Of a stretch of DNA of 64,000 nucleotides, positions 29,641 to 61,465 are shown piece by piece. The position numbers and the translations under genes were made by a program. Location: positions 1 to 64,000 of IMG/VR virus record IMGVR_UViG_651053022_000004. One strand, written 5' to 3'. The notes below the pieces were generated by a model. It was not told where the DNA came from, searched no databases, and was given only the letters and a program-made list of their open reading frames with translations. Source of the DNA: a virus. Its lineage: Duplodnaviria; Heunggongvirae; Uroviricota; Caudoviricetes. Within the stretch, counting starts at the first letter, position 1. Every line of letters starts with the position of its first letter.

Positions 29641-30069
29641 ATGACACAGACAGAATCAGCGATTCTGGCGCACGCCCGGCGATGTGCGCCAGCGGAGTCG
29701 TGTGGCTTCGTGGTGAGAACGCCGAAGGGGGAAAGATATTTTCCCTGCGTGAATATCTCCGGTGAGCCGGAGGCGTATTTCCGGATGTCGCCGGAGGACT
29801 GGCTGCGGGCAGAGATGCAGGGTGAGATTGTGGCGCTGGTCCACAGCCACCCCGGTGGTCTGCCCTGGCTGAGTGAGGCTGACAGGCGGCTGCAGGTGCA
29901 GAGTGATTTGCCGTGGTGGCTGGTCTGCCGGGGGGCGATTCATAAGTTCCGCTGTGTGCCGCATCTTACCGGGCGGCGCTTTGAGCACGGGGTGACGGAC
30001 TGTTACACGCTGTTCCGGGATGCTTATCATCTGGCGGGGATAAACCATAGAGCAGAATTATTTTTCTGA
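29641..30069 (+). pseudogene. K: Tail tip assembly protein K, truncated at a junction after codon ~133
   Basis: Product matches the full-length K paralogue at 49661-50404 up to ...TLFRDAYHLAG, then diverges to INHRAELFF-stop in AT-rich sequence. Confidence 0.85.
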
Positions 30070-30237
30070 TGTTGTTTATTGTTTATTTAAATGCAGGGTG
30101 GTTTATATCTCGTCTTGTAGTTTATCCATGCATATCTGCTTGATAATCAGGTTTTTATTTAAGGTATGGTTTTGTGTTTTTTCTGTATTACATGTCAGGT
30201 ATTTTAAAGAATCATTTTTCAGATGGTGGAAAGAACC

Positions 30238-30426
30238 ATGGCATTTAAACACTATGATGTTGTCAGGGCGGCGTCGCCGTCAGATCTTGCGGAAAAGCTG
30301 ACACATAAACTGAAAGAGGGCTGGCAGCCGTTTGGTAGTCCGGTGGCCATAACCCCTTATACCCTGATGCAGGCGATTGCAGCAGAAGGTGATGTGGTGG
30401 TCAGTGGTGCAACTGAGCCGGAGTGA
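30238..30426 (+). CDS. DUF1737-like small protein typical of lambdoid late regions
   Basis: 62-aa product MAFKHYDVVRAASPSDLAEKLTHKLKEGWQPFGSPVAITPYTLMQAIAAEGDVVVSGATEPE; assignment from recollection of proteins encoded upstream of holins. Confidence 0.45.
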   Translation: MAFKHYDVVRAASPSDLAEKLTHKLKEGWQPFGSPVAITPYTLMQAIAAEGDVVVSGATEPE

Positions 30427-30669
30427 TACTACGTCATCGTACTGGCCCGGCATTCTAGGCCATAAAGGACAGTCTGGCAGTGGGACTAAATGCACTGACG
30501 CTGACGGATATTACCAAAAATGCAACGTATGGCGTTGAGATAGAAAGTCTGGTGCTGGAGATAAATGTACCGGCATCATCATAAAAAGTGAGCCAGTCAA
30601 ATGGAAGGTATCGTTAAACTCACCGGTAGTGTCAGTGGGTCGTCTGAGATGCCTGCATGAGTTATCAGA

Positions 30670-30699
30670 GCCATCAGTACTTAACTGGTGGCTTTTTTT
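30670..30699 (+). terminator. Candidate late-leader terminator upstream of the holin
   Basis: Hairpin gccatcagtacttaactggtggc followed by a T-run. Confidence 0.45.
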
Positions 30700-30734
30700 A
30701 TTGTTGTCAGCTTCCGGATAACGGGAGACGGGGT

Positions 30735-30950
30735 ATGGACCAGATGGAAAAAATCACAACAGGTGTGTCATACACCACGTCAGCGGTGGGAACGGGCTAC
30801 TGGTTCCTGCAGTTGCTGGACAGGGTTTCCCCGTCTCAGTGGGCGGCAATAGGCGTGCTGGGGAGTCTGCTGTTTGGGCTGCTGACATATCTGACTAACC
30901 TGTATTTCAAAATCAGAGAGGACCGTCGTAAGGCGGCACGGGGAGAGTAA
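30735..30950 (+). CDS. Class II holin, S21-like pinholin (start at internal ATG)
   Basis: 71-aa product [71 protein letters not shown], two TM segments; resembles phage 21 S as I recall it. Confidence 0.8.
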
Positions 30951-30954
30951 TTCA

Positions 30955-31305
30955 ATGACTCAAAACTATGAACTGATTGTGAAAGGGATCCGCAATTTTG
31001 AGAATAAAGTTACGGTAACTTTAGCGTTACGGGACAAAAAACGCTTTGACGGTGAAATTTTTGACCTGGACATCTCGCTGGACCGTGTTGAAGGTGCCGC
31101 GCTGGAGTTTTATGAGGCAGCAGCCAGAAGGAGCATCAGACAGGTCTTCCTGGATGTTGCTGCCGCGTTATGTGAAGGGGATGAGCAGTCGCCGGAAAAG
31201 CGCCCCGTAATTTTAGAGGCGCAGAATGTATGGATAACCTACAAAGGAAAGCTACCGGGAAGAATTACTGGTTCTCTGAAGACTCCTCCGGAATCACAAC
31301 CTTAA
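30955..31305 (+). CDS. Chimeric ORF: YdfR-like (DUF1327-like) N-terminus fused to a duplicated segment
   Basis: 116 aa; N-terminal ~73 aa resemble the small protein found between holin and endolysin in some lambdoid prophages; the last ~39 codons are the segment repeated at 32087-32205. Confidence 0.4.
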   Translation: MTQNYELIVKGIRNFENKVTVTLALRDKKRFDGEIFDLDISLDRVEGAALEFYEAAARRSIRQVFLDVAAALCEGDEQSPEKRPVILEAQNVWITYKGKLPGRITGSLKTPPESQP

Positions 31306-31339
31306 GTCACTGACCGGAACAGATAAACCTGTCCGTGGG

Positions 31340-31867
31340 GCAAAAATCAGATACGGCCTGTCGGCTGCCGTTCTGGCACTGATTGCCGTCGGTGCGCCCG
31401 CGCCTGATATTCTCGACCAGTTTCTGGATGAAAAAGAAGGTAACCACACAACGGCATACCGCGATGGGTCCGGCATCTGGACCATCTGTCGGGGGGCCAC
31501 GATGGTGGATGGAAAACCCGTTTTTCCCGGTATGAAACTGTCGAAGGAAAAATGCGACCAGGTCAACGCCATTGAGCGTGATAAGGCGCTGGCATGGGTG
31601 GAGCGCAATATTAAAGTACCACTGACCGAACCACAAAAAGCGGGTATAGCGTCATTCTGTCCCTATAACATTGGCCCCGGTAAGTGTTTCCCGTCGACGT
31701 TTTATAAGCGGCTGAATGCCGGTGATCGTAAGGGCGCATGCGAGGCGATTCGCTGGTGGATAAAAGATGGTGGGCGCGATTGCCGCATACGTTCAAATAA
31801 CTGCTATGGACAGGTTATTCGTCGTGACCAGGAAAGCGCATTAGCCTGTTGGGGGATAGAGCAGTGA
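31340..31867 (+). pseudogene. SAR-endolysin (lysozyme-like) copy A lacking a start codon
   Basis: Colinear with the intact copy at 32547-33080 from its third codon on, but the upstream in-frame sequence has no ATG/GTG/TTG before the catalytic region; only an internal ATG at 31502. Confidence 0.65.
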
Positions 31868-32268
31868 GCAGAGTCGCCGCGATTATTTATGCTTTGGTTA
31901 TCTGCATCATCGTCTGCCTGTCGTGGGCGGTCAATCATTACCGTGATAACGCCATCGCCTACAAAGAACAGCGTGATAAAAAAGTCAGTGAGCTGAAGCA
32001 GTCGATCGCCACCATCGCTGACATGCAGCAGCGTCAGCGTGATGTTGCTGCACTCGATGCAAAGTACTCGAGAGAATTAGCCAATGCGAAAGTCGCCGGA
32101 AAAGCGCCCCGTAATTTTAGAGGCGCAGGATGTGTTGATAACCTACAGAGGAAAACTACCGGGAATAATTACGGGTTCTCTGAAGAGTCCGCCGAAATGG
32201 TAATTTTACCAGCATATTTTTCATCCAGTAATACAGCAAGCCGCCTGAAAGAGTCTTGTTGTTCCTGA
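31864..32268 (+). pseudogene. Rz-like spanin 5' fragment (about 75 codons) fused to the duplicated segment
   Basis: [40 protein letters not shown]... is Rz-like up to ...ELANAK, then continues into the 32087-32205 repeat in an unrelated frame. Confidence 0.6.
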
Positions 32269-32441
32269 GACCATTTGGGATTGCATGATTCAAACTGGAT
32301 TGATGCCAGCGTTGATTGCATCTGTTCCCTTGGAATTGAGAATGCCAGATATGAGAAGGCGACGGTAAGGGTATTCACGTCTTCCCGAAGCCTGGAAATG
32401 CTGTCGAGCAACTCCTGTAGAGAAATGGTGTTATTGTCCAT
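32169..32441 (-). CDS. Hypothetical protein
   Basis: 90-aa minus-strand ORF between the duplicated segment and endolysin copy B; its last ~12 codons lie in the repeat. Confidence 0.3.
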
Positions 32442-32546
32442 AAATAATCCTCATGATTGTATTGACCTGTTAGCAGCCTGAGGCAACAGGCTGGAACTGA
32501 TAAACATATCCAGGGCTCAGAAACCGATAAATCCTGATAAATATCC

Positions 32547-33080
32547 ATGAACGCAAAAATCAGATACGGCCTGTCGGCTGCCGTTCTGGCGCTGATTGCC
32601 GCTGGTGCGCCTGCGCCTGACATTCTCGACCAGTTTCTGGATGAAAAGGAAGGTAACCACACCACGGCATACCGTGATGGCGCGGGTATCTGGACCATCT
32701 GCCGCGGTGCCATCCTGGTGGATGGCAAACCTGTCGTTCCGGGCATGAAGTTGTCGAAGGAAAAATGCGACCGGGTTAACGCCATTGAGCGTGATAAGGC
32801 GCTGGCATGGGTGGAGAAAAACATCAAAGTGCCATTGACCGAACCCCAGAAAGCGGGGATCGCGTCATTCTGTCCGTACAACATTGGTCCCGGTAAGTGT
32901 TTCCCGTCGACGTTTTACAGACGAATTAATGCAGGTGATCGCAGGGGAGCATGCGAAGCGATTCGCTGGTGGATTAAGGACGGTGGCAGAGACTGCCGTA
33001 TTCGCTCAAATAACTGTTACGGTCAGGTATTCCGTCGTGACCAGGAGAGCGCGCTGGCGTGCTGGGGAATCGACAGATAA
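32547..33080 (+). CDS. SAR endolysin (lysozyme-like), intact copy B
   Basis: 177 aa with N-terminal signal-anchor-release-like segment (MNAKIRYGLSAAVLALIAAGAPAP) and E...D...T catalytic-triad spacing (DEKEGNHTTAYRDGAGIWTI). Confidence 0.8.
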   Translation: MNAKIRYGLSAAVLALIAAGAPAPDILDQFLDEKEGNHTTAYRDGAGIWTICRGAILVDGKPVVPGMKLSKEKCDRVNAIERDKALAWVEKNIKVPLTEPQKAGIASFCPYNIGPGKCFPSTFYRRINAGDRRGACEAIRWWIKDGGRDCRIRSNNCYGQVFRRDQESALACWGIDR

Positions 33081-33172
33081 GCAGAATATTTTGCTGAAAA
33101 ATGAGGTTGGCCAACGCGGGCGGATAACACGAAGTCCTGTGAACTGGCAAAACCTAAGTGAATAAAAGTAAA

Positions 33173-33210
33173 AACCCCGTTTGTTGGCAGCAAGCGGGGT
33201 TTTGTTTTTA
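33173..33210 (+). terminator. Candidate terminator downstream of endolysin copy B
   Basis: Hairpin ccccgtttg...caagcgggg followed by ttttgttttt. Confidence 0.5.
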
Positions 33211-33274
33211 TGGCAGTAAGCTATGGGAGGCTGCCTTGATTGATTTTAGCAAACTGATTAGGGAGTTGCGACTC

Positions 33275-33370
33275 ATGATTAGTCAATTACCAAACTGGAA
33301 ATTTTTGCTGGTCTGGAGCATCCCTTTTTTATGGGTAGTATCCCAGTTAATTGTGGCAATTAAGGGGTAG
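33275..33370 (+). CDS. Small hydrophobic peptide ORF 1
   Basis: 31 codons (MISQLPNWKFLLVWSIPFLWVVSQLIVAIKG), one predicted TM helix. Confidence 0.3.
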   Translation: MISQLPNWKFLLVWSIPFLWVVSQLIVAIKG

Positions 33371-33372
33371 CT

Positions 33373-33504
33373 ATGTCAGACAAACTCATAACGCCGGCAA
33401 AGGTCCTGTGTGTGATTGTCGGTATTTCATTTTCACTAATGCTGGTTGCTCTTTTTCTGTCCCTCGCCTGGGTGATGTTGTCTTCGTCGGGGCTGCTGGG
33501 GTGA
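33373..33504 (+). CDS. Small hydrophobic peptide ORF 2
   Basis: 43 codons (MSDKLITPAKVLCVIVGISFSLMLVALFLSLAWVMLSSSGLLG); GGGG motif 7 nt upstream of the ATG. Confidence 0.4.
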   Translation: MSDKLITPAKVLCVIVGISFSLMLVALFLSLAWVMLSSSGLLG

Positions 33505-33623
33505 CAGTGACTGATGACATCAGCAGAGCGCTGGCTTTTGCTATTAAGTGGGTGGCTGTTGGTATTGCTGTGTCTCCGATGCTGTATGGGCTGGCAAAAC
33601 TGGTCATTGCGCTGAAATCGTGA
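33501..33623 (+). CDS. Small hydrophobic peptide ORF 3 (GTG start assumed)
   Basis: 40 codons (…DDISRALAFAIKWVAVGIAVSPMLYGLAKLVIALKS); shares an RA(L/M)AFAI(K/R) motif with ORF 4. Confidence 0.35.
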   Translation: MTVTDDISRALAFAIKWVAVGIAVSPMLYGLAKLVIALKS

Positions 33624-33634
33624 ACTTTAAAAAG

Positions 33635-33721
33635 ATGAGTGCTGAACTTATTCGGGCAATGGCATTTGCCATTCGTATTGTGGCCATTGCTGTTCTGGTC
33701 TGGGCAATCCGTTGGTGGTGA
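33635..33721 (+). CDS. Small hydrophobic peptide ORF 4
   Basis: 28 codons ([28 protein letters not shown]); paralogous to ORF 3 with synonymous-site differences. Confidence 0.35.
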
Positions 33722-33722
33722 T

Positions 33723-34217
33723 ATGAACCGTGTTCTGTGTGTGGTGATTATTGTCATGCTGGTAGCCTGTGGTGTGCTTAGTCTGGGGCTGAATCATTAC
33801 CGCGATAACGCCATCACCTACAAAGCGCAGCGCGATAAAAAAGTCAGTGAGCTGAAACTGGCGAATGCCACTATTACTGACATGCAGCAGCGCCAGCGAG
33901 ATGTCGCTGCGCTTGATGCCAGATACACGAAGGAATTAGCCGATGCGAGAGCTGAAAATGAAACTCTGCGCGCTGATGTTGCCGCTGGTCGTAAGCGCCT
34001 GCGGGTCAACGCCACCTGCCCCGGTACCGTGCGTGAAGCCACCGGCACCTCCAGCGTGGATAATGCAACCGGCCCCCGACTGGCAGACACCGCTGAACGG
34101 GATTATTTCATCCTCAGAGAACGGTTGATGACAATGCAGAAGCAGCTGGAAGGGGCGCAGGAATATATCCGCACTCAGTGCACTAAGCTGGCTTTTTATT
34201 ATCCGGAGGATACATGA
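33723..34217 (+). CDS. Rz-like inner-membrane spanin, copy B (intact)
   Basis: Start at [21 protein letters not shown]...; Rz-like coiled-coil region; contains an embedded Rz1-like ORF. Confidence 0.8.
33943..34128 (+). CDS. Rz1-like outer-membrane lipoprotein spanin, copy B
   Basis: 61-aa ORF ([39 protein letters not shown]...) embedded in Rz in the +1 frame. Confidence 0.8.
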
Positions 34218-34429
34218 AGAAATTACGGGTAACCGTAGAACCTTTTCAGGGAACAATTCCGTTCCGTATTTTGCAGCGTGGTCGTGTTCTTGTTGAAGGT
34301 TCGTTCAGTGGTAAATGTACGCAATTACACTCCCGGACCTTTCAGGTGAATGCCACGAATGAAGAGCTAACCGTGGAGTGTACGATGAATGCCGCTAAAT
34401 GCCGCATGGTATTACAGCCAGTGTGTTGA
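34214..34429 (+). CDS. Hypothetical protein
   Basis: 71-aa ORF overlapping the Rz stop; no recognisable motif. Confidence 0.25.
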
Positions 34430-34450
34430 GCGACCTTATTATCCATGCGC

Positions 34451-34621
34451 GGTATTGTCGCCGTATTCCTGCATTAACAGAGACCGCAGCCCGACAGGGA
34501 GACTCCTCTGCGCGAGTGTGCGGGGATAATCAAAAACGATACACACCGGGGTTTACCGCGTTAACGGAGCGCGGCGTTGTCCCCTCATAGTCGCCTGTCC
34601 GGTGCGATGGTGGAAGAAACC
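34451..34621. repeat. Repeat R2, copy B
   Basis: Aligns with 14126-14281; nested stems conserved with compensatory changes. Confidence 0.75.
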
Positions 34622-34627
34622 GAACGT

Positions 34628-34828
34628 TCATTTCTCGTTATTTGTCATGCTGGCCGGGCGCAGATGCGTTGCATCTGTTGCCAGCCTTCTCCTGCAGGCT
34701 TCAATAACCCACGCTGAAAAGTTACCGGACCCTTTATGCTCAAGGGCGATGTTGATCTGTTCAATTATGTGATTGGGGAAACGGATATTGCGGGTTGTGG
34801 TTCTGCGGGTCCGGTTTTTCGATGACAT
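34628..34828 (-). CDS. Ribbon-helix-helix (Arc/CopG-like) DNA-binding protein (start at internal ATG)
   Basis: 66-aa product MSSKNRTRRTTTRNIRFPNHIIEQINIALEHKGSGNFSAWVIEACRRRL...; basic N-terminus followed by strand-helix-helix-like pattern. Confidence 0.45.
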   Translation of the reverse strand: MSSKNRTRRTTTRNIRFPNHIIEQINIALEHKGSGNFSAWVIEACRRRLATDATHLRPASMTNNEK

Positions 34829-34869
34829 ATTTATTTCCTTTACTGATTGCCATATGACGGGGATTTTAC

Positions 34870-35235
34870 ATGGCTGAGCTTCGTACACTCCAGAGCAGAA
34901 TCAAAACACTGAATACCCGACGGGTGAATATTCTGAAGGGGGAGCAGCGTCGTGTCAGTGGCAGTGCACGTGTTTCCCTCAAGCGTCATATCTGGCTGAG
35001 GGACGCCGGGCAGTGCTGTATCTGTGGTCGTGTGGTTGACCTCTGTGACAGTGAACTCGATCACCGAATTGCACTTCAGTTCGGTGGTGGTAATGAGGAG
35101 ACGAATCTTTGGACGCTCTGTGCCGAATGCCATCGACAAAAGTCTGCTCGTGAAGCGGCGAGTGGTATGCCGGACCCGACGCTGCCGGAGGTGTCCGGAG
35201 GTAGTGGCAGAGAGGACGACATCATCGGACTGTAA
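34870..35235 (+). CDS. HNH endonuclease upstream of a terminase small-subunit gene
   Basis: 121 aa with Cys-x-x-Cys ... DHRIALQFGG ... N ... CAECH motif arrangement typical of phage HNH nucleases. Confidence 0.8.
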   Translation: MAELRTLQSRIKTLNTRRVNILKGEQRRVSGSARVSLKRHIWLRDAGQCCICGRVVDLCDSELDHRIALQFGGGNEETNLWTLCAECHRQKSAREAASGMPDPTLPEVSGGSGREDDIIGL

Positions 35236-39792: not shown

Positions 39793-40014
39793 ATGGCAAA
39801 GATCCGATATCTGCAGGGCACGCATGATGCCCGGGCCGGGGATATCCGTGATGTGGCACAGCCGTGTGCGGAGGTGCTGGTTCGCCTGGGAAAGGCGGAG
39901 TACATCACGGTGCGACGTCCGGCAGGTCAGAAAAAGAAACGTGATGCGGAGCATGGCGAATGTGGAACCTTTTACGGCGAACCCGAAAAAACCAGAAATC
40001 AGGACGTGACGTAA
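39793..40014 (+). CDS. Hypothetical small protein between capsid and portal genes
   Basis: 73-aa ORF after a GGGAGGCGtgCGCCTCCC hairpin; overlaps the portal start. Confidence 0.3.
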   Translation: MAKIRYLQGTHDARAGDIRDVAQPCAEVLVRLGKAEYITVRRPAGQKKKRDAEHGECGTFYGEPEKTRNQDVT

Positions 40015-41636
40015 GAGAGGCGGGCTGGACCAGCCTGTTTCAGGCGGTGGCTGAGCCCTTTTCCGGCGCCTGGCAGCAGGGCGTGAAAGCCGATCCTGAA
40101 GCCGTCCTCTCCTTTCATGCGGTGTTTGCATGTATTTCGCTGATATCCCGGGATATCGCCAAAATGCGGCTGCGTCTTATGCAGACGGATGCGCATGGGA
40201 TACGCAGGGAAACGCGCCGGGGGGATATTGCCCGCCTCTGTCGTCGTCCCAACGCCCAGCAGAACCGCATCCAGTTTTTTGAACTGTGGCTGAACGCCAA
40301 ACTGCGTCATGGCAATACGGTGGTGCTGAAAATCCGTAATGCCCGGGGGCAGATCAAAGAACTGCGTATTCTGGACTGGAGCCGGGTTGAACCTCTGGTG
40401 GCGGATGACGGCGAGGTGTTCTACCGCATCACGCCGGACCGGAACTGCGGGATCACGGAGGCGGTGACGGTGCCTGCCCGGGAAGTGATCCACGACCGGT
40501 TTAACTGTTTTTTTCATCCGCTTATAGGATTGCCGCCGGTGTATGCCGCCGGGCTGGCGGCCACGCAGGGGCATCATATTCAGGAAAATTCGACGTCTTT
40601 TTTCAGAAATGGCGGCAGGCCGTCCGGGGTGATTGAGATCCCCGGCAGTATTACGGAAGAAAATGCGAAAAAACTGAAGAGCAACTGGGACAGCGGGTAT
40701 ACAGGCGAAAATGCGGGGAAAACGGCCATTCTGAGCAACGGGGCAAAATACAACCCCACGACGTTTTCACCTGTGGATGCGCAGACGGTGGAACAACTGA
40801 AGATGACCGCTGAAATTGTCTGTTCGGTGTTCCGTGTCCCGGCCTACAAGATTGGCGTGGGACAACCGCCTTCCAGTGACAACGTGGAGGCGCTGGAGCA
40901 GCAGTATTATTCCCAGTGCCTGCAGACGCTGATTGAGTCCATTGAACTGTTACTGGATGAGGCGCTGGAAACGGGGGAAAACGAGAGTACAGAATTTGAT
41001 GTCACCACGCTGCTGAGAATGGACAGTGAGCGGCGCATGAAAACGCTGGGGGATGCGGTGAAAAATACGCTTCTCACGCCCAATGAGGCCCGTAAACGGG
41101 AGAACCTGCCGCCCCTGGCCGGCGGTGATGCACTGTATCTTCAGCAGCAGAACTACAGTCTGGAGGCGCTGTCCCGTCGTGATGCCCGTGAGGATCCGTT
41201 CGCGTCTGCCGGGAAAACAGTTTCATCACAGCTGCCTGACGGCGCATCTGACGGTAATAAGGCAATCAGTGAAACAGAGCATGATGCGGTGAAAGCGATG
41301 TTCAGGGGGGATACTGAGAAAATGACGGAACGGGAACTGTCCATTATTCGTGCACTGGGAGAAGAATTCTCCACAGTGCTGGCGGATTTACAGCGCACAT
41401 TTGAGGGGAAGATGGCCTCGCAGGCACAAGCGTTTGAAGAGAAACTGACTTCCCTGTCGGCGGTATTACAGAAGCATGTGACGGTGGATGAGGTGCGTCC
41501 GGTTCTGCAGGCGATGGTGGATGACGCTGTGGGGGCCATTCCGGTACCGCGTGATGGTCGTGATTATGATCCGGATGTACTGCAGCATGGTGAAGGAGGC
41601 TGTAAGCCATATCCCTGTTCCGCGCGACGGTCGTGA
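39960..41636 (+). CDS. Portal protein (3' end enters a tandem-repeat region; start uncertain)
   Basis: 558 aa; colinear with the third-module portal (…FF(R)NGG…, …FNVPA/FRVPAYKIG…); its C-terminus carries the first PVPRDGRDYDPDVLQ unit. Confidence 0.7.
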   Translation: MWNLLRRTRKNQKSGRDVREAGWTSLFQAVAEPFSGAWQQGVKADPEAVLSFHAVFACISLISRDIAKMRLRLMQTDAHGIRRETRRGDIARLCRRPNAQQNRIQFFELWLNAKLRHGNTVVLKIRNARGQIKELRILDWSRVEPLVADDGEVFYRITPDRNCGITEAVTVPAREVIHDRFNCFFHPLIGLPPVYAAGLAATQGHHIQENSTSFFRNGGRPSGVIEIPGSITEENAKKLKSNWDSGYTGENAGKTAILSNGAKYNPTTFSPVDAQTVEQLKMTAEIVCSVFRVPAYKIGVGQPPSSDNVEALEQQYYSQCLQTLIESIELLLDEALETGENESTEFDVTTLLRMDSERRMKTLGDAVKNTLLTPNEARKRENLPPLAGGDALYLQQQNYSLEALSRRDAREDPFASAGKTVSSQLPDGASDGNKAISETEHDAVKAMFRGDTEKMTERELSIIRALGEEFSTVLADLQRTFEGKMASQAQAFEEKLTSLSAVLQKHVTVDEVRPVLQAMVDDAVGAIPVPRDGRDYDPDVLQHGEGGCKPYPCSARRS

Positions 41637-41910
41637 CTATGATCCCGATGTTCTGCAGAAGGCGGTGAATGATGCGGTCGCAAATATTCCGCAGCCGGCG
41701 GACGGTAAAAGTCTCACCCCGGATGATGTGCGTCCGATGCTTGAACAGATGGTGAAGGAGGCTGTAAGCCATATCCCTGTTCCGCGTGATGGTCGTGACT
41801 ACGATCCGGAAGTAGATGTGCGTCCGATGCTTGAACAGATGGTGAAGGAGGCGGTAAGCCATATTCATGTTCCGCGTGATGGTCGTGACTACGATCCGGA
41901 TGTTCTGCAG
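41539..41910 (+). repeat. Tandem coding repeats with PVPRDGRDYDPD units, including a perfect 90-nt tandem pair
   Basis: Units at ~41539, 41612, 41773 and 41863; 41731-41820 and 41821-41910 near-identical. Confidence 0.8.
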
Positions 41911-42384
41911 AAGGCGGTTCTGGATGCGGTGAGTGCCCTGCCGGCTCCGCAGGACGGGCGTGATGCCACGGCTCTGGAAATACTCCCCGCCATTGACGAT
42001 CAAAAATCCTTTCCCCGGGGCACGTATGCCACACACCAGGGCGGACTCTGGCGGGCGTATGAAAAAACGCACGGGATGCGGGGATGGGAATGCCTGGTTG
42101 ACGGGGTGGCGGATATTGACGTCAGCATGACGGGTGAGCGGTTGTTCTCTGTGGTGGTCCGGCAGAGCAGTGGCCAGCGTACGGAAAAAACATTTTCCCT
42201 GCCGGTGATGCTCTACCGCGGTGTGTTCAGAGCCGGTGAAACCTACCACCCCGGCGATACGGTGACGTGGGGGGGCTCGCTGTGGCACTGCAACAGTATG
42301 ACCGAAGATAAACCCGGAGAAGCTCATTCATCAGCCTGGACCCTGGCTGCAAAACGTGGGCGGGATGCAGGAGGCGGAAAATGA
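41587..42384 (+). CDS. Repeat-containing protein of unknown function (possibly once contiguous with the portal ORF)
   Basis: 266 aa starting MVKEAVSHIPVPRDGRDYDPDVLQKAV...; frame differs by one nucleotide from the portal ORF at ~41586. Confidence 0.45.
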   Translation: MVKEAVSHIPVPRDGRDYDPDVLQKAVNDAVANIPQPADGKSLTPDDVRPMLEQMVKEAVSHIPVPRDGRDYDPEVDVRPMLEQMVKEAVSHIHVPRDGRDYDPDVLQKAVLDAVSALPAPQDGRDATALEILPAIDDQKSFPRGTYATHQGGLWRAYEKTHGMRGWECLVDGVADIDVSMTGERLFSVVVRQSSGQRTEKTFSLPVMLYRGVFRAGETYHPGDTVTWGGSLWHCNSMTEDKPGEAHSSAWTLAAKRGRDAGGGK

Positions 42385-51324: not shown

Positions 51325-53517
51325 ATGGGAAAAGGTGGCGGTAAGGCACACACGCCTCGTGAGGCGAAGGATAATCTCAAATCCACGCAGATGATGAGCG
51401 TGATTGATGCGATTGGTGAGGGACCGATAGAAGGTCCGGTGAAGGGACTGCAGAGTATTCTGGTGAACAAAACCCCACTGACGGACACGGACGGCAATCC
51501 CGTGATACACGGTGTGACGGCGGTCTGGCGCGCCGGGGAGCAGGAGCAGACACCACCGGAAGGCTTTGAGTCCTCCGGAGCTGAAACCGGACTGGGCGTG
51601 GAAGTGACGAAGGCAAAACCGGTGACGCGCACCATTACGTCCGCGAACATTGACCGCCTGCGGGTTACCTTCGGGGTGCAGTCACTGGTGGAGACCACCT
51701 CAAAGGGTGACCGTAACCCGGCATCCGTCCGCCTGCTGATTCAGTTACAGCGTAACGGTAACTGGGTGACAGAAAAGGACGTCACCATTAACGGCAAGAC
51801 CACCTCACAGTTCCTGGCCTCGGTGATTCTGGATAATCTGCCTCCCCGGCCCTTTAACATCCGGATGGTCAGGGAGACGGCGGACAGCACCACGGACCAG
51901 CTGCAGAATAAGACGCTGTGGTCGTCATACACCGAAATCATCGATGTGAAACAGTGCTACCCGAACACGGCCATTGTGGGGCTGCAGGTGGATGCGGAGC
52001 AGTTCGGCGGCCAGCAGATGACGGTGAACTACCATATCCGCGGTCGCATCATCCAGGTGCCGTCAAACTATGACCCGGAAAAACGCACGTATAGTGGTAT
52101 CTGGGACGGCAGTCTGAAACCGGCATACAGCAACAACCCGGCCTGGTGTCTGTGGGACATGCTGACTCACCCGCGCTACGGCATGGGAAAACGTCTGGGG
52201 GCGGCGGATGTGGACAAGTGGGCGCTGTATGCCATCGGGCAGTACTGCGACCAGACGGTCCCGGATGGTTTCGGGGGGACCGAGCCGCGGATGACCTTTA
52301 ATGCGTACCTGGCACAACAGCGTAAGGCGTGGGACGTTCTCAGTGATTTCTGCTCTGCGATGCGCTGTATGCCGGTATGGAACGGTCAGACGCTGACGTT
52401 CGTTCAGGACCGCCCGTCGGATGTGGTGTGGCCGTACACCAACAGCGATGTGGTGGTGGATGATAACGGCGTGGGATTCCGCTACAGCTTCAGTGCCCTG
52501 AAGGACCGGCACACGGCGGTGGAGGTGAATTACACCGACCCGCAGAACGGCTGGCAGACCTCCACGGAACTGGTGGAAGACCCGGAAGCCATACTGCGCT
52601 ACGGACGCAACCTGCTGAAGATGGACGCGTTCGGCTGTACCAGCCGCGGTCAGGCCCACCGTGCCGGACTGTGGGTGATAAAGACCGAACTGCTGGAAAC
52701 GCAGACGGTGGATTTCACGCTCGGGTCTCAGGGGCTGCGGCACACACCCGGTGACATTATTGAAATCTGTGATAATGACTATGCCGGGACCCTGACCGGC
52801 GGACGTGTCCTGTCCATTGATGCTGCCACCCGCACCCTGACGCTGGACCGTGAGGTTACCCTGCCGGAGACAGGTACATCGGCGGTGAACCTGATTAACG
52901 GCAGCGGTAAGCCGGTGAGTGTGGACATCACCGCACACCCCGCGCCGGACCGGATACAGGTCAGTACCCTGCCTGATGGTGTGGAGACATACGGGGTGTG
53001 GGGACTCTCCCTGCCGTCACTGCGCCGTCGCCTGTTCCGCTGTGTCTCCATCCGGGAAAACACGGACGGCACCTTTGCCATCACGGCGGTGCAGCACGTA
53101 CCGGAAAAAGAAGCCATCGTGGATAACGGTGCCCGCTTTGAGCCGCAGTCAGGTTCCCTGAACAGCGTCATCCCACCGGCAGTGCAGCACCTGACGGTGG
53201 AGGTGAGCGCAGCTGACGGCCAGTATCTGGCGCAGGCGAAATGGGACACGCCGCGGGTGGTGAAGGGTGTGCGCTTCAGTCTGCGCCTGACCAGTGGTAA
53301 GGGAACGGATGCCAGACTGGTGACCACCGCCATCACCGCAGACACGGAGCACCGTTTCAGCGGCCTGCCGCTCGGGGAATACACCCTGACGGTGCGGGCG
53401 ATAAACAGCTATGGCCAGCAGGGTGAACCTGCCACCACCACCTTCCGGATTGCCGCACCGGCAGCACCGTCGCGGATTGAGCTGACGCCGGGCTATTTTC
53501 AGATAACTAAACGATAG
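51325..53517 (+). CDS. J: Host specificity/tail tip protein J, C-terminally truncated
   Basis: 730-aa product colinear with lambda J as I recall it up to …APAAPSRIELTPGYFQIT, then two codons and a stop supplied by repeat R1; the C-terminal third is absent. Confidence 0.85.
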   Translation: MGKGGGKAHTPREAKDNLKSTQMMSVIDAIGEGPIEGPVKGLQSILVNKTPLTDTDGNPVIHGVTAVWRAGEQEQTPPEGFESSGAETGLGVEVTKAKPVTRTITSANIDRLRVTFGVQSLVETTSKGDRNPASVRLLIQLQRNGNWVTEKDVTINGKTTSQFLASVILDNLPPRPFNIRMVRETADSTTDQLQNKTLWSSYTEIIDVKQCYPNTAIVGLQVDAEQFGGQQMTVNYHIRGRIIQVPSNYDPEKRTYSGIWDGSLKPAYSNNPAWCLWDMLTHPRYGMGKRLGAADVDKWALYAIGQYCDQTVPDGFGGTEPRMTFNAYLAQQRKAWDVLSDFCSAMRCMPVWNGQTLTFVQDRPSDVVWPYTNSDVVVDDNGVGFRYSFSALKDRHTAVEVNYTDPQNGWQTSTELVEDPEAILRYGRNLLKMDAFGCTSRGQAHRAGLWVIKTELLETQTVDFTLGSQGLRHTPGDIIEICDNDYAGTLTGGRVLSIDAATRTLTLDREVTLPETGTSAVNLINGSGKPVSVDITAHPAPDRIQVSTLPDGVETYGVWGLSLPSLRRRLFRCVSIRENTDGTFAITAVQHVPEKEAIVDNGARFEPQSGSLNSVIPPAVQHLTVEVSAADGQYLAQAKWDTPRVVKGVRFSLRLTSGKGTDARLVTTAITADTEHRFSGLPLGEYTLTVRAINSYGQQGEPATTTFRIAAPAAPSRIELTPGYFQITKR

Positions 53518-53582
53518 TTAAATGGATTGATGAAAATTAAAACTATATAGGTGGATGCTCAGCCTATCGGAGGTAGTCAGGA
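53508..53582. repeat. Repeat R1, copy B, forming the J truncation junction
   Basis: taaacgatagttaaatggattgatgaaaattaaaacta identical to 13990-14027. Confidence 0.8.
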
Positions 53583-53841
53583 TTTGAATGTCAGTCTGTT
53601 GTCGGCATTCTGGCAATGCAATTTGGATAAAGCGGGGATTAAAAAGATAGAGGCGAGCCGGTCAGGTAGAAATGAATCAGGCTCAAAGTGAAGCGGAAAA
53701 GGTCTGTGGCACAAGCTGATGCAGCCATAATTACAGCCTGATGATTTGTGGAATGAAACATGTTGAACCTCCTTAATTGATGTTATTCGAGTGATGAAGG
53801 CATTCTGTCCTTCTATAGTGTCCAGTAAATCAAACAGGAAA

Positions 53842-53863
53842 CTTGTCCAACGTGTTGGACAAG
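53842..53863. promoter_or_regulatory. Perfect 10-bp inverted repeat cttgtccaac-gt-gttggacaag (candidate protein-binding site)
   Basis: Palindrome in the noncoding junction between truncated J and the HNH gene. Confidence 0.35.
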
Positions 53864-53983
53864 CCTCTCCATTAGTGAGTTGTATTGATCACAACTCTAC
53901 AAAGAATTCATTACTGGGTAGATGAAAATAGTTTCACTATGAATGGAGGAGGCTATGTCGGTGGCTTCTTCATTGGAGTACAT

Positions 53984-54334
53984 ATGCCCCCACGAATCCC
54001 ACGCGCCTGCCGTAAGCGTGGATGTGCAGGTACAACCACAGACAGTTCTGGTTACTGCGATAAACATCGTGGCGAAGGATGGGTACAGCATCAACGCGGA
54101 CTGAGCCGCCACCAGCGTGGCTATGGCTCGAAATGGGATGCCATACGTGCGCGCATACTGAAGCGTGATAATCATCTGTGTCAGAACTGCCTGCGCAATG
54201 GGAGAGCCGTTGAAGCCAGAACTGTGGACCACATCATTCCGAAAGCTCATGGTGGCACGGATGCAGACAGTAACCTGCAGAGTCTGTGCTGGCCCTGTCA
54301 TAAAGCAAAAACAGCGCGCGAACGCATCAATTGA
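53984..54334 (+). CDS. HNH endonuclease (start at internal ATG) upstream of terS
   Basis: Product MPPRIPRACRKRGCAGTTTDSSGYCDKHRGEG... with …DHIIPKAHGG…N…CWPCH… motif arrangement. Confidence 0.8.
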   Translation: MPPRIPRACRKRGCAGTTTDSSGYCDKHRGEGWVQHQRGLSRHQRGYGSKWDAIRARILKRDNHLCQNCLRNGRAVEARTVDHIIPKAHGGTDADSNLQSLCWPCHKAKTARERIN

Positions 54335-54481
54335 TAACAGTTCCCATCTGTAGGGGAGGGGCAGGCCAAATCTCTGCAACCCTGGCTGCTCAGTACCGCC
54401 GCCTGACCTTTCCTCGCATCGCCGCAGGTTCGAAAACTTTTTTTTGGAATGTGATTAAATGATTGATAGGTAAAACCGATT

Positions 54482-54964
54482 ATGTCTGGACCCCCGAAAA
54501 CCCCGCCACGCCTGCATTTGATACGAGGCAACCCCTCAAAGCGGCCAGTTAAAGACCTCAAAAAAACCGCTAAAAAGGATGAAAAAGGTCTCCCTAAAAT
54601 TCCGCAACATTTAGGGGCGCAGGGGAAGTACTGGTTCAGGCGAATGGCGGAAGAGCTGAATGCGGAAGGGATCATTTCTCAGCTTGATGCGCGTGCGCTT
54701 GAGCTACTGGTGGAAGCCTATACCGAATACCGGCATCACTGCGAAACACTCGATGTTGAGGGGTACACCTACCGCTCGAAAACGCAGAACGGTGATGTGC
54801 TGATTAAGGCACACCCGGCTGCTGCGATGAAAGCGGATGCCTGGAAGCGGATCCGGGCGATGCTTGCAGAATTTGGTATGTCACCGGCAAGCCGGGCAAA
54901 AGTAAATACCGCCGGACCGGATAATGTTGATCCGCTGGCAGAGCTTTTAAAAGCGAGAGACTGA
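54482..54964 (+). CDS. Terminase small subunit (P27-like)
   Basis: 160-aa ORF directly upstream of and abutting the large terminase gene. Confidence 0.75.
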   Translation: MSGPPKTPPRLHLIRGNPSKRPVKDLKKTAKKDEKGLPKIPQHLGAQGKYWFRRMAEELNAEGIISQLDARALELLVEAYTEYRHHCETLDVEGYTYRSKTQNGDVLIKAHPAAAMKADAWKRIRAMLAEFGMSPASRAKVNTAGPDNVDPLAELLKARD

Positions 54965-56721
54965 TGGCAAAAGTGGCTGACGGGATCCGCTACGCCGAAC
55001 GTGTTGTTGCAGGAGAAATTGTTGCTGGCGAATTTGTCCGCCTGGCCTGCCAGCGTTTTCTTGATGATCTGAAGTACGGCGAAAAGCGGGGGATTTATTT
55101 CAGTGAACCCCGTGCGCAGCACATCCTGAATTTCTACAAATTTGTGCCTCATGTAAAAGGGGCACTGGCAGGCCAGCCCATTGAGTTGATGGACTGGCAT
55201 GTATTTATCCTCATTAATATTTTTGGTTTTGTCATTCCGCTGGTCAATGAAGAAACCGGGGAAGTTGTCATGCGCAGCGATGGCAGCGGACGTCCGGTGA
55301 TGGTGCGCCGGTTCCGGACGGCGTACAACGAAGTCGCCCGTAAAAACGCAAAATCAACCCTGTCATCGGGTATCGGCCTGTATATGACGGGGGCAGATAG
55401 TGAAGGCGGAGCTGAGGTGTATTCAGCCGCAACCACGCGTGACCAGGCCAGAATCGTGTTTGAAGACGCCAAAAATATGGTCAGAAAAGCCCGGTCGACA
55501 CTCGGGCGGTTGTTTGATTTCAACAAGCTGGCGATTTACCAGGAGCAGAGCGCATCAAAATTTGAACCGCTTTCCTCGGATGCAAACAACCTGGACGGTC
55601 TGAACATCCACTGCGCCATTATTGATGAGCTGCATGCACATAAAACCCGCGACGTGTGGGACGTTCTGGAAACGGCAACCGGTGCCCGTCTGCAGTCCCT
55701 GTTATTTGGTATCACCACGGCTGGCTTTAACAAGGAAGGGATTTGTTACGAGCAGCGTGATTACGCCATCAAGGTATTGCGAGGCTATAACAGCGACGTG
55801 GAGGGCGCTGTAAAAGACGACTCTTACTTTGCGATCATTTACACGCTTGATGAGGGAGATGATCCGTTTGATGAAACGGTCTGGCAGAAAGCGAATCCTG
55901 GCCTGGGCATCTGTAAACGCTGGGATGATCTGCGTCGTCTGGCGAAAAAAGCGAAGGAGCAGGTCTCTGCGCGGGTGAATTTTTTTACCAAACACATGAA
56001 TGTGTGGGTCACTGCCGAATCTGCCTGGATGGATATGATTAAGTGGGAGAAGTGCGAATACATTGCTCCACAACATGAGCTGAAAACATATCCCATGTGG
56101 GTCGGCGTCGACCTTGCTCATAAGATTGATATCTGTGCGGCGGCAAAACTCTGGCGAACCGATAACGGACATGTTCATGCTGATTTTAAATTCTGGCTTC
56201 CGGAAGGACGGCTGGAACGATGCTCGCGGCAGCAGGCAGAACTTTACCGGAAGTGGGCGGAGATGGATAAGCTCATCCTGACGGATGGTGATGTTATCGA
56301 TCATGCTCAGATAAAAAGTGACTTACTGGAATGGATTGGCGGTGAAAACCTCAGGGAACTGGGATTTGACCCGTGGAGCGCAATGCAGTTCAGTCTGGCA
56401 CTGGCTGAAGAAGGGATACCGCTGGTGGAGGTTCCGCAGACGGTCCGCAATCTGTCAGAGGCCATGAAGGAAACGGAATCACTGGTTTATGCCGGGCGTT
56501 TCCATCACAGCAATCATCCGGTCATGAACTGGATGATGTCTAACGTTACTGTAAAACCGGACAAAAACGACAACATCTTCCCGAATAAATCCACGCCGGA
56601 AGCCAAAATCGACGGCCCTGTTGCGCTTTTTACAGCCATGAGCCGCTTTCTGGTAAATGGCGGGGGCGTGAATGACTTTCTGTCCACGCTTGATCCTGAT
56701 GAGGACCTGTTAATTCTGTGA
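54964..56721 (+). CDS. Terminase large subunit
   Basis: 585 aa; Walker-A-like VARKNAKST; followed by the portal gene. Confidence 0.85.
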   Translation: MAKVADGIRYAERVVAGEIVAGEFVRLACQRFLDDLKYGEKRGIYFSEPRAQHILNFYKFVPHVKGALAGQPIELMDWHVFILINIFGFVIPLVNEETGEVVMRSDGSGRPVMVRRFRTAYNEVARKNAKSTLSSGIGLYMTGADSEGGAEVYSAATTRDQARIVFEDAKNMVRKARSTLGRLFDFNKLAIYQEQSASKFEPLSSDANNLDGLNIHCAIIDELHAHKTRDVWDVLETATGARLQSLLFGITTAGFNKEGICYEQRDYAIKVLRGYNSDVEGAVKDDSYFAIIYTLDEGDDPFDETVWQKANPGLGICKRWDDLRRLAKKAKEQVSARVNFFTKHMNVWVTAESAWMDMIKWEKCEYIAPQHELKTYPMWVGVDLAHKIDICAAAKLWRTDNGHVHADFKFWLPEGRLERCSRQQAELYRKWAEMDKLILTDGDVIDHAQIKSDLLEWIGGENLRELGFDPWSAMQFSLALAEEGIPLVEVPQTVRNLSEAMKETESLVYAGRFHHSNHPVMNWMMSNVTVKPDKNDNIFPNKSTPEAKIDGPVALFTAMSRFLVNGGGVNDFLSTLDPDEDLLIL

Positions 56722-56879
56722 AACAGCTTATTACTGATATGACCGGGCTGATCGGTTTCGGTCTGCTCACTGCTGGCGTTTATCTGTATGCAGGTCTGCC
56801 AGCGTCTCTGATGCTGTCTGGCTGTTTGTTGCTGCTTTATGCACTGGTGGTGTCCATGAGGAGAAAACATGCTTCTTGA
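56718..56879 (+). CDS. Small membrane protein (tentative)
   Basis: 53-codon ORF (GTG start) VKQLITDMTGLIGFGLLTAGVYLYAGLPASLMLSGCLLLLYALVVSMRRKHAS between terL and portal. Confidence 0.25.
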   Translation: MKQLITDMTGLIGFGLLTAGVYLYAGLPASLMLSGCLLLLYALVVSMRRKHAS

Positions 56880-58095
56880 TGCTCTGTTTCGCAGTGAGCC
56901 TCTGGAAAATCCCTCGGTTCCGGTAACCGGAGAGGCCGCAGAGACGGATAATATTTTTGCCCGGGATGTGTATGTCAGTCCGGAAACGTCCATGAGGCTG
57001 GCTGCTGTCTATGCCTGTATTTATGTTATTTCATCCAGTGTGGCTCAGATGCCCCTGCATGTGATGCGAAAAACGAATGAGCATGTTCAGCCGGCACGCG
57101 ATCACCCGTTGTTCTGGCTCGTTCATGATGAACCGAATGCCTGGCAGACCAGCTATAAGTGGCGGGAACTGAAGCAGCGTCATGTGCTGGGGTGGGGCAA
57201 TGGTTATACGTGGGTGAAACGTAATCGTCGTGGCGAGGTTACCAGTCTTGAATGCTGTATGCCATGGGAAACCACGTTACTTAACACCGGAGGGCGTCAT
57301 ACCTACGGTGTGTATAACGAAGAGGGTGCATTTGCGGTAAGTCCGGACGACATGATCCATATCAGGGCGCTGGGAAACAATCAGAAAATGGGACTGAGTC
57401 CGATCATGCAGCATGCTGAAACCATTGGTATGGGAATGAGTGGTCAGCAGTATACCAGTGCTTTTTTTAACGGTAATGCCCGTCCTGCCGGGATTATTTC
57501 TGTGAAAAATGAACTGAACGAACAGAGTTGGAGCAGGCTCAAGAATATGTGGCAGCGGGCGGTGACAGCGCTTCGCAGCCAGGAAAATAAAACCATGTTG
57601 CTGCCTGCGCAACTGGATTACCGCGCTCTGACAGTTTCTCCGGTGGATGCTCAGATCATTGATATGACCAAGCTGAACCGGTCGATGATTGCCGGGATTT
57701 TTAATGTCCCGGCGCACATGATTAATGACCTGGAAAAAGCCACATTTTCGAATATTACGCAGCAGGCGATTCAGTTTGTTCGCTACACGATGATGCCCTG
57801 GGTTGCGAACTGGGAGCAGGAGCTTAACCGTCGCCTGTTTACCCGTACAGAACGGGCTGCCGGGTATTACGTTCGTTTCAACCTCACGGGGTTGCTCCGT
57901 GGGACCCCACAGGAGCGTGCGCAGTTCTATCACTTTGCCATTACAGATGGCTGGATGAGTCGGAATGAAGCCAGGGCATTTGAGGATATGAACCCGGTTG
58001 ACGGTCTGGATGAAATGCTGGTCAGCGTAAATGCAGCAAATCCGTTGAATAACTTTAAAGATACGAAAGGCAAAGAGGAAAAGAACGATGAATGA
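56869..58095 (+). CDS. Portal protein (HK97-type)
   Basis: 408 aa; position after terL and before the prohead protease. Confidence 0.85.
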   Translation: MLLDALFRSEPLENPSVPVTGEAAETDNIFARDVYVSPETSMRLAAVYACIYVISSSVAQMPLHVMRKTNEHVQPARDHPLFWLVHDEPNAWQTSYKWRELKQRHVLGWGNGYTWVKRNRRGEVTSLECCMPWETTLLNTGGRHTYGVYNEEGAFAVSPDDMIHIRALGNNQKMGLSPIMQHAETIGMGMSGQQYTSAFFNGNARPAGIISVKNELNEQSWSRLKNMWQRAVTALRSQENKTMLLPAQLDYRALTVSPVDAQIIDMTKLNRSMIAGIFNVPAHMINDLEKATFSNITQQAIQFVRYTMMPWVANWEQELNRRLFTRTERAAGYYVRFNLTGLLRGTPQERAQFYHFAITDGWMSRNEARAFEDMNPVDGLDEMLVSVNAANPLNNFKDTKGKEEKNDE

Positions 58096-58687
58096 CCGTG
58101 AAACGCGCTGTTACAGCGGGGAGGTGCGGGCGGAACAATATGATAATGCCCCGACCCACATTCTGGGCTATGGCTCGGTATTTAACAGTCGTTCAGAACC
58201 TCTGTGGGGATTTCGTGAAATCATCAAGCCGGGGGCTTTTGATGATGTACTGAATGATGATGTACGTGGCTTGTTTAATCATGATCCTAATTTCATTCTC
58301 GGACGAAGTTCTGCCGGCACGTTGTCATTGTCGGTGGATGAACGCGGTTTACGTTATGACATTGTTGCACCGGATACTCCGACTATTTGTGACCTGGTGC
58401 TATCTCCAATGTTGCGTGGTGACATTAATCAGTCCTCGTTCGCGTTTCGTGTCGCCCGTGACGGAGAGAGCTGGTATGAAGACGACGAGGGGATTGTTAT
58501 CCGGGAAATCACGCGCATTTCTCGTCTGTATGACGTCAGCCCGGTGACATATCCGGCCTATCAGGACGCAGACTCTGGTGTCCGCTCAATGAAAGCCTGG
58601 CAGGAAGCGCGGGCGAGTGGTGCGCTGAAGAAAGCTGTTAACGAACGAATGGCGCGTGAGCGTCTTTTGACCCTTCTTAATGCATAA
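58088..58687 (+). CDS. Prohead protease (HK97-type)
   Basis: 199 aa between portal and capsid genes; similar to the N-terminal domain of the fusion ORF at 37811. Confidence 0.8.
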   Translation: MNDRETRCYSGEVRAEQYDNAPTHILGYGSVFNSRSEPLWGFREIIKPGAFDDVLNDDVRGLFNHDPNFILGRSSAGTLSLSVDERGLRYDIVAPDTPTICDLVLSPMLRGDINQSSFAFRVARDGESWYEDDEGIVIREITRISRLYDVSPVTYPAYQDADSGVRSMKAWQEARASGALKKAVNERMARERLLTLLNA

Positions 58688-58701
58688 GGATACTACTGAC
58701 G

Positions 58702-59919: not shown

Positions 59920-59941
59920 CCACTCGTTGTTCAGTTACAGA

Positions 59942-59963
59942 CCGCGCCGACGCGGTTTTTTTA
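59942..59963 (+). terminator. Terminator/attenuator downstream of the capsid gene
   Basis: Hairpin ccgcgccgacgcgg followed by a T-run. Confidence 0.5.
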
Positions 59964-59995
59964 TGCCCGCACAGTGTTGCGGGCAGGAGTTTCTG

Positions 59996-60313
59996 ATGGC
60001 AGCAATAGTGGAAAAACTCAGGGCGCAGTGCCGTATTGATACAGATGATGCAACTGATGATGAGTTACTGATGCTGTATTTCCGGGCTGCCTGCCGCAAG
60101 GCAGAAAATTTTATCAACCGTAAGCTTTATGAGGAGACGGTGCCGGAAGGTGATCCTGAAGGGGTGCTTATAGCTGATGATGTTTTGCTGGCGCTCATGT
60201 TGCTGGTCGGGCACTGGTACGAAAACCGGGAAAATTCCTCAGATGTCAGCAAGGCACCAGTCCCGTTTGGTTTTTCTTCTCTGCTGGAGCCTTATCGTTT
60301 TATTCCTTTGTAG
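59996..60313 (+). CDS. Head-tail connector (gp6-like), start at internal ATG
   Basis: 105-aa product MAAIVEKLRAQCRIDTDDATDDELLMLYF...; caggag motif upstream. Confidence 0.6.
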   Translation: MAAIVEKLRAQCRIDTDDATDDELLMLYFRAACRKAENFINRKLYEETVPEGDPEGVLIADDVLLALMLLVGHWYENRENSSDVSKAPVPFGFSSLLEPYRFIPL

Positions 60314-60321
60314 GAGGAGAC

Positions 60322-60660
60322 ATGCAGGCGGGCAGATTACGTGATCGCGTAATTATTCTGAATGTCACCACCGCCCGCTCTCCGTCAGGGCATCCGGTGG
60401 AGACGGTGACGGAGGGAGCTACCGTATGGGCAGAAGTTAAGGGTATCAGCGGGAGGGAGATAATCTCAGGCGGAGCAGAAACCGCTCAGGCTACGGTCAG
60501 AGTCTGGATGAGATTCCGGCGCGATGTGACAGCGACTTCACGTCTGAAAGTGCTGACCGGTGCATTTAAAGGGGCCATTCTGGGTATAGAAGGTCCACCA
60601 ATACCGGATGCACGCGCTACCCGGCTTGAAATACTCTGCAGCCTGAAGGGGAATGTGTGA
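60322..60660 (+). CDS. Head closure / head-tail adaptor protein
   Basis: 112 aa; paralogue of 42717-43067. Confidence 0.6.
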   Translation: MQAGRLRDRVIILNVTTARSPSGHPVETVTEGATVWAEVKGISGREIISGGAETAQATVRVWMRFRRDVTATSRLKVLTGAFKGAILGIEGPPIPDARATRLEILCSLKGNV

Positions 60661-61447: not shown

Positions 61448-61465
61448 GGTCATTAATGATTTTAC

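Follow-up and report, generated by a model that had tools for sequence, protein, structure and literature searches.

A ydfR 3' segment present twice between two prophage lysis cassettes very probably marks a short-read assembly seam

Why should one short segment of a prophage sequence form the ends of two different open reading frames? The window analyzed here is the whole stretch of 64,000 nt given by positions 1 to 64,000 of the IMG/VR record IMGVR_UViG_651053022_000004. A preliminary description had reported a segment present twice in it, at 31188-31305 and 32087-32205, and had taken this segment for a junction or duplicated fragment supplying the C-termini of two chimeric ORFs. The repeat is real, and its coordinates had been placed correctly within a few bases. 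A repeat search and our own count gave 98 identical positions of 108 (91%) in an ungapped alignment of 31187-31294 (copy A) with 32091-32198 (copy B). When this nucleotide alignment, which had been proposed as a check, is stretched to 31304 and 32208, 103 of 118 positions are identical. By chance alone, 64 kb of sequence would be expected to contain about 1e-37 matches of this quality. Both copies open with the same 38 nt (31187-31224 and 32091-32128), and all ten mismatches fall within the other 70 nt; the maximal exact match at 31187/32091 is exactly 38 nt and extends to neither side. As had been described, the frame of ydfR (30955-31305) runs through copy A, and copy B, in another frame, forms the tail of the ORF at 31864-32268 that begins with a truncated Rz gene (Rz').

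The ORF containing copy A is an intact gene of the ydfR family (30955-31305, plus strand; 116 AA), which is referred to as the Y allele below. Its residues 1-112 match profile positions 1-92 of 93 of Pfam PF07041 (DUF1327) with E = 7e-43 and a score of 145 bits, compared to a gathering cut-off of 25, which places the protein in this family; in phrog_406, positions 1-113 of 114 are covered. About 1,000 contigs carry a record of the identical protein, named 'YdfR family protein'. The gene is located between a class II (P21-type) holin gene at 30735-30950 (plus strand; Pfam Phage_holin_2_1, E = 9e-33) and a lysozyme gene starting at 31340, i.e., in its usual cassette position, and the order holin-ydfR-lysozyme-Rz is also annotated in E. 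coli 4/0 and M24. The 3' part of ydfR plus the downstream spacer (31150-31339) is 100% identical to strain 4/0. Copy A (31187-31294, plus strand) is the native 3' end of this gene, covering codons 79-114 of 116, with weak similarity on to 31304. In 83 phage genomes, the segment was found once per genome, and the annotated matches are ydfR/DUF1327-type or hypothetical genes. The claim that the first of the two ORFs is chimeric does not hold; the ORF is full-length and probably seemed chimeric because the tail of the K-12 YdfR protein differs from about residue 70 onwards.

In the YdfR family, the N-terminal 70-77 residues are conserved, and the C-terminal tails come in alternative forms; PHROG matches cover residues 1-77, 1-86 or 1-113. 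Two PHROG profiles (183 and 296 positions) are far longer than YdfR, and our guess is that lysozyme read-through fusions have been included. Among the literature matches listed, nothing was found on the function of ydfR/DUF1327, and DUF1327 is mentioned in none of those. Most of the top matches concern an unrelated melanoma cell line, and one paper on RNase E partners in E. coli mentions ydfR often.

A homology search for an intact parental gene, the second check that had been proposed, returned ydfR for both copies: they are the 3' ends of two different alleles. Copy B (32091-32198, plus strand) consists of the last 36 codons of a second allele, Z, and forms the first bases of a block of Z-type DNA. 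In the ST131 strains AR_451 and IPCEC48, the Z allele encodes 114 AA and overlaps an antisense gene tail to tail, followed by a lysozyme gene, small ORFs and Rz/Rz1. Starting at 32091, 8,059 nt of the window (a 38-nt seed and an 8,021-nt extension) agree with IPCEC48 without a mismatch, and AR_451 is also identical. Examined as a DUF1327/YdfR gene, 32091-32203 holds residues 79-114 of the Z allele only, and the conserved N-terminal 77 residues are missing.

Upstream of 32091 lie the 5' 227 nt of the Rz gene of the type found in strain 4/0. This Rz' fragment (31864-32090, plus strand) stems from the i-spanin gene of the Y type and ends at the last Y-specific base. It matches positions 1-53 of 126 only of the Pfam family Phage_lysis, and the Rz1 frame comprises three codons before the joint, hence, no Rz/Rz1 spanin pair with a full Phage_lysis domain and an embedded Rz1 is present at 31864-32090. 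Two ORFs cross the joint. The longer one (31864-32268, plus strand; 134 AA) is composed of Rz', copy B read out of frame and sequence of the antisense gene, and is regarded as artefactual. The shorter one (32084-32203, plus strand; 39 codons) joins three codons of the Rz1 frame in frame with YdfR residues 79-114 of the Z allele; it begins with the ATG of the Rz1 frame, as judged by comparison with the Rz1 starts at 13452 and 33943. In an exact look-up, neither the K' fusion nor either of the two start variants of the Rz' fusion was recorded as a gene. A homology search of about 15 billion public proteins retrieved a single record of the Rz' fusion protein, UniParc UPI0002185775 via MetaClust. 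The earlier reading of the segment as a junction stands for copy B, where a truncated Rz gene runs into the final 36 codons of ydfR. Its second part, that the segment is not a conserved domain, fails: the segment is native to the DUF1327/YdfR domain, of which the ORF at 30955-31305 covers the full profile.

A local duplication of about 900 bp inside one prophage, after which the copies diverged, would also yield two related segments at a short distance. Similar spacings could be taken as a trace of such an event, since the ydfR tail recurs after 904 nt, lysozyme after 1,213 nt and Rz after 1,859 nt. These spacings are, however, unequal, and the copies are only 83-91% identical. Moreover, the two copies correspond, with 100% identity, to two distinct widespread alleles, which reside in separate prophages in other genomes, and the antisense ORF as well as the small ORFs between lysozyme and Rz are present in one cassette only. 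Distinct alleles and one-sided ORFs indicate that two lineages have been juxtaposed, which makes duplication followed by drift an explanation with next to nothing in its favor. As each copy matches a different prophage allele, the difference of 9% reflects allelic divergence between prophage lineages and not drift after a duplication.

The segment might instead be a functional module, i.e., the end of a mobile cassette, a regulatory RNA or a terminator, reused to provide alternative C-termini. The tails of the YdfR family are indeed alternative, K-12 YdfR diverges at about residue 70, the PHROG matches end at residue 77, 86 or 113, and the segment overlaps the end of the antisense gene. Yet no Rfam match with E ≤ 1 was obtained in the region 30000-35000, the segment contains no terminator-like site, and a scan for promoters and terminators gave nothing within it above shuffled expectation. 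Among the E. coli matches listed, the left flank is always the body of ydfR, with no sign of independent mobility. A reused module is hardly credible for these reasons.

The antisense gene (32169-32441, minus strand) is conserved, encodes 90 AA of unknown function and matches phrog_2411 over positions 1-90 of 90. As previously noted, it terminates within copy B, where its last 12 codons and the stop codon are located. AR_451 and IPCEC48 carry an annotated CDS of 273 nt (WP_000369850.1) at the equivalent tail-to-tail position, and the exact protein is recorded on about 1,000 contigs. The tail-to-tail overlap of this phrog_2411 gene (Ybl58 in one source) with the end of the Z-type ydfR amounts to 37 nt. 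The Y cassette is without this gene, and a vestige of its last 12 codons plus stop is found on the reverse strand of copy A at 31265-31304; this vestige suggests that the Y-type cassette may have been derived by a deletion of about 270 nt. The remaining part of the Z cassette contains an intact lysozyme gene (32547-33080, plus strand; Pfam Phage_lysozyme, annotated as lysozyme in IPCEC48) and an intact Rz gene (33723-34217, plus strand; Pfam Phage_lysis positions 1-125 of 126), in which Rz1, an ORF with a lipobox, is embedded at 33943-34128. Between lysozyme and Rz lie small ORFs, two of which, at 33158-33370 (phrog_6632) and 33351-33623 (phrog_3246), match phage families of unknown function; for the interval matching 33158-33623, three short hypothetical proteins are annotated in IPCEC48.

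The window is built of four blocks, and for each of them a prophage with 99.9-100% identity exists in finished ST131 genomes. The first block (1-30040) is a lambda-like prophage X with integrase, O, Q, S/R/Rz/Bor, terminase, the tail genes to L and a truncated K. The second (30041-32090) is a piece of 2 kb from prophage Y with a DUF1737 ORF, holin, ydfR, a start-less lysozyme and Rz'. The third (32091-53507) represents the late region of prophage Z from the middle of ydfR to a gene J truncated at codon 728 and is, one repeat array excepted, 99.98% identical to IPCEC48. The fourth (53508-64000) again stems from Y and is 100% identical to EC958, M24 and others. In M24, the sequences of the second and fourth block are part of one prophage, with 604 bp (the 3' half of Rz and iss) between them. 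As can be seen directly in finished ST131 genomes, X, Y and Z occupy separate positions, 0.1-0.9 Mb apart: strain 4/0 has X at 1.28 Mb and Y at 2.16 Mb, and in IPCEC48, Y is located at 2.07 Mb and Z at 2.76-2.78 Mb.

Besides the joint at 32090/32091, two further seams separate the blocks. At 30040/30041, the truncated tail gene K of X abuts, by alignment, a Y/Z region upstream of the DUF1737 ORF. Position 30040 is the final base of a run of 63-67 nt common to the K genes of X, Y and Z, and 30041 is the first base of a run common to Y and Z upstream of DUF1737. At 53507/53508, the truncated Z-type tail gene J (codon 728) abuts Y-type DNA, 47 nt upstream of the expected start of iss. Position 53507 lies 38 nt past the last difference between Z and X in J, within a shared run of 47 nt. 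The J gene of Y was considered as the paralogue that determines the end of the Z block and was rejected, as only 14 nt are shared; the X-type J of strain 4/0 fits exactly.

The first 104 nt of the second block (30041-30144) are identical to the Z-type upstream region of AR_451 and IPCEC48 and match the Y-type sequence of M24 and 4/0 up to 30092 only, which fits a collapsed repeat node of Y and Z. The first bases to the right of the seams at 30040/30041 and 53507/53508 are TAAACCATAG and TAAACGATAG. The motif TAAAC[C/G]ATAG occurs three times in the window (30041-30050, 53508-53517 and 13990-13999), compared to 0.11 expected occurrences. A site-specific element was considered for this motif and dropped, as the third copy (13990) is ordinary DNA upstream of bor and an assembly word length of k = 39 predicts both seam positions. 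The likeness of the two 10-mers at the seams is treated as a coincidence; the k = 39 model leaves their resemblance unexplained.

The positions of the seams follow a rule that can be observed directly in the sequence. The joint at 32091 lies exactly 38 nt before 32129, the first base unlike copy A. Likewise, the block starting at 53508 runs together with the bor-upstream copy at 13990 for exactly 38 nt before the two diverge, and the sequence from 31340 does so for exactly 38 nt with the Z lysozyme, which is matched at 32553. Besides 32091, 31340 and 53508, positions 41749 and 41815 also have exact matches of 38 nt; starts k-1 nt ahead of the first distinguishing base are what contigs of a de Bruijn assembly would show. 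The left-hand ends are similarly constrained. Position 32090 is the last Y-specific base, and the next base opens a run of 43 nt common to the true Y and Z Rz genes. At 32090, 53507, 30040 and 31339, blocks end at the edges of shared runs, and the stretch missing at 31339/31340 equals the length of the shared run minus (k-1).

A seam inside the second block illustrates the latter relation. At 31339/31340, alignment to strain 4/0 reveals that 35 nt with the ribosome-binding site and the ATG of the Y lysozyme are gone. These 35 nt are also absent relative to M24, and they are present in all ten of the best-matching complete E. coli genomes listed. The true Y and Z sequences share exactly 73 nt at this position, and 73 - 38 = 35. 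The remaining Y-type lysozyme gene (31340-31867, plus strand; Pfam Phage_lysozyme) is without its first two codons, ATG included, and without ribosome-binding site; no ATG, GTG or TTG occurs in its frame ahead of 31502. Apart from this, 31340-32092 is identical to M24 and 4/0. From its match to the shared run, the 35-nt loss looks like a skipped repeat node and not like a real pseudogene mutation. An N-terminally truncated lysozyme ORF of 121 AA (31502-31867) is recorded on 13 other contigs, some of them labelled 'partial'; given these records, other short-read assemblies may break at the same 73-nt repeat.

The spectrum of exact repeats is likewise unusual for three related prophages. All maximal exact repeats of at least 20 nt in the window were listed. 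Five of them are 38 nt long and two are 39 nt long, and a single one reaches at least 40 nt, namely a repeat of 67 nt which ends at the seam 30040/30041. A control of the same size, composed of X, Y and Z from the finished genomes of 4/0, M24 and IPCEC48, contains 60 exact repeats of at least 40 nt, up to 427 nt in length. Hence, repeats above the word length are depleted in the window compared to finished genomes (1 vs. 60 of at least 40 nt). The two 39-nt repeats (13578/34072 and 31565/32778) lie inside blocks; as they persist there, the model requires that the assembler resolved single shared k-mers.

In the third block, the portal gene contains an array of repeats of about 89 nt. Inside this array, 41588-41814 comprises 227 nt in the window, compared to 64 nt in IPCEC48; the gene is thereby split into two ORFs (39960-41636 and 41488-42384), and exact 38-nt matches at 41587/41749 and 41725/41815 flank the extra DNA. 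The arrangement of these matches suggests that the extra DNA in the portal gene would be the same kind of assembly artefact.

Based on this geometry, the joint of Rz' and ydfR, and with it the duplicated segment, is very probably an assembly artefact. A block start 38 nt ahead of an allelic difference at several independent sites has no reason in biological recombination, which argues for an assembler seam. The window would be a pseudo-molecule composed of contigs from a short-read de Bruijn assembly; a Velvet-like assembler and k = 39 are inferred from the lengths of the overlaps. Its source would be an E. coli ST131-type genome with at least three lambdoid prophages: the lambda-like X, prophage Y with the order holin-ydfR-lysozyme-Rz-iss-HNH-P27 terminase, and prophage Z with the order holin-ydfR-antisense ORF-lysozyme-Rz-HNH-terminase. 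Wherever the prophages share at least 39 identical bases, the graph would collapse and the contig break, and the pieces would later have been joined in a row. Unique nodes would keep an overlap of k-1, and where a short repeat node was skipped, as many bases would be missing as its length exceeds k-1. In the case of the segment studied here, the contig carrying the Z-type ydfR would open with its 38-base (k-1) overlap to the Y allele (32091-32128, plus strand; identical to 31187-31224) and would have been set right after the Y contig ending in Rz. Contig concatenation would then account for the chimeric ORFs as well as for the lysozyme gene without a start and the incomplete genes Rz, K and J, and the real chromosome most likely contains one complete ydfR and one complete lysis cassette per prophage. 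The preliminary description had missed this geometry, which indicates that the junction it proposed is most likely not a product of biological recombination.

The only serious alternative to an artefact is a genuine hybrid prophage, in which illegitimate recombination joined the Y-type Rz after codon 76 to the Z-type ydfR at codon 79; the result would be a partial tandem duplication of the lysis cassette, of which the redundant lysozyme later decayed by a deletion of 35 bp. We consider this unlikely. It would account for a joint between non-homologous positions, and the 2-nt overlap 'AG' at 32091-32092 can be read as microhomology. Holin, one intact lysozyme and an intact Rz/Rz1 pair have been kept, so that, judging from the genes, lysis could still work, and a difference of 9% between copies which are each identical to a known allele is what two phage lineages would show. 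On the other hand, recombination offers no reason for starts exactly 38 nt ahead of an allelic difference at three joints, would not remove just as many bases as a shared run has beyond 38, and does not explain why exact repeats of at least 40 nt, which are normal between three related prophages, are lacking in the window. In addition, the truncation of the tail genes K and J implies that the composite is not viable as a phage. The 'AG' was dropped as a candidate for microhomology, as the 38-nt rule already explains the position of the joint; under the assembly model, it is a coincidence.

A natural mosaic should recur in independent isolates or phages, and all three joints are private to the sequence of the window. 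Among 5,426 complete E. coli genomes, not one spans the joint at 30040/30041, 32090/32091 or 53507/53508, and the Rz'/ydfR joint is absent from 50,697 phage records; both absences were observed directly. Patterns of 38 nt and 24 nt across the latter joint had no match in genome, viral and metagenome contig collections, and the fusion protein appears in one public record. That the joint is nevertheless real, i.e., a newly formed mosaic boundary with redundant partial genes, and that the 38-nt coincidences are accidental, is quite improbable.

If the assembly explanation is correct, the repeat has no biological meaning and is of practical use. It would then be wrong to interpret the split portal gene, the incomplete tail genes K and J, the lysozyme gene without a start or the Rz'-YdfR fusion ORF as pseudogenes, recombination scars or new proteins; the fusion ORF, at least, has already entered public protein databases. 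Exact repeats of a fixed length at the starts of blocks, combined with few longer ones, provide a quick and reusable check to flag pseudo-molecules built from short reads. Should the joint be real, it would be only a modest case of the mosaicism known from lambdoid phages. In the model associated with Hendrix and Juhala, mosaics of lambdoid phages reportedly form novel joints by illegitimate recombination. The window resembles such joints in the abrupt transition from one lysis cassette to another at non-homologous positions, with partial genes remaining there; it differs by the 38-nt assembler geometry, by the single record and by the other seams, which truncate essential tail genes.

A closer likeness is found in the 'complete' genome of the ST131 strain NA114, which was obtained from 54-bp Illumina reads by a Velvet assembly whose contigs were ordered on SE15 and concatenated (Forde et al. 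2014, PMC4134206). Its prophage differences were judged to be misassembly in the same study (Forde et al. 2014, PMC4134206). As would be expected from a concatenation of Velvet contigs, ST131 prophage fragments which are far apart in finished genomes adjoin in the window. Similarly, the window breaks at repeats between prophages and is almost without repeats longer than k. The overlaps of k-1 = 38 nt correspond to k = 39, an odd number, as Velvet requires. The 38-nt signature was measured in the window and is not taken from PMC4134206, and a link between the window and NA114 is a lead only.

The individual cassettes correspond to a known module. The cryptic prophage Qin of E. coli K-12 carries essQ-ydfR-rrrQ-rzpQ, i.e., a class II holin, DUF1327/YdfR, lysozyme and Rz/Rz1 in the same order. 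The first 70 residues of Qin YdfR and of the ORF at 30955-31305 are highly conserved, with 63% identity overall. YdfR of K-12 has 103 AA and another C-terminal tail, and its gene overlaps rrrQ directly; in contrast, the Y allele encodes 116 AA and is followed by a spacer of 63 nt, and the Z allele encodes 114 AA and overlaps the 90-AA antisense gene. The module of holin, ydfR, lysozyme and Rz is also present in Stx phages and other lambdoid phages.
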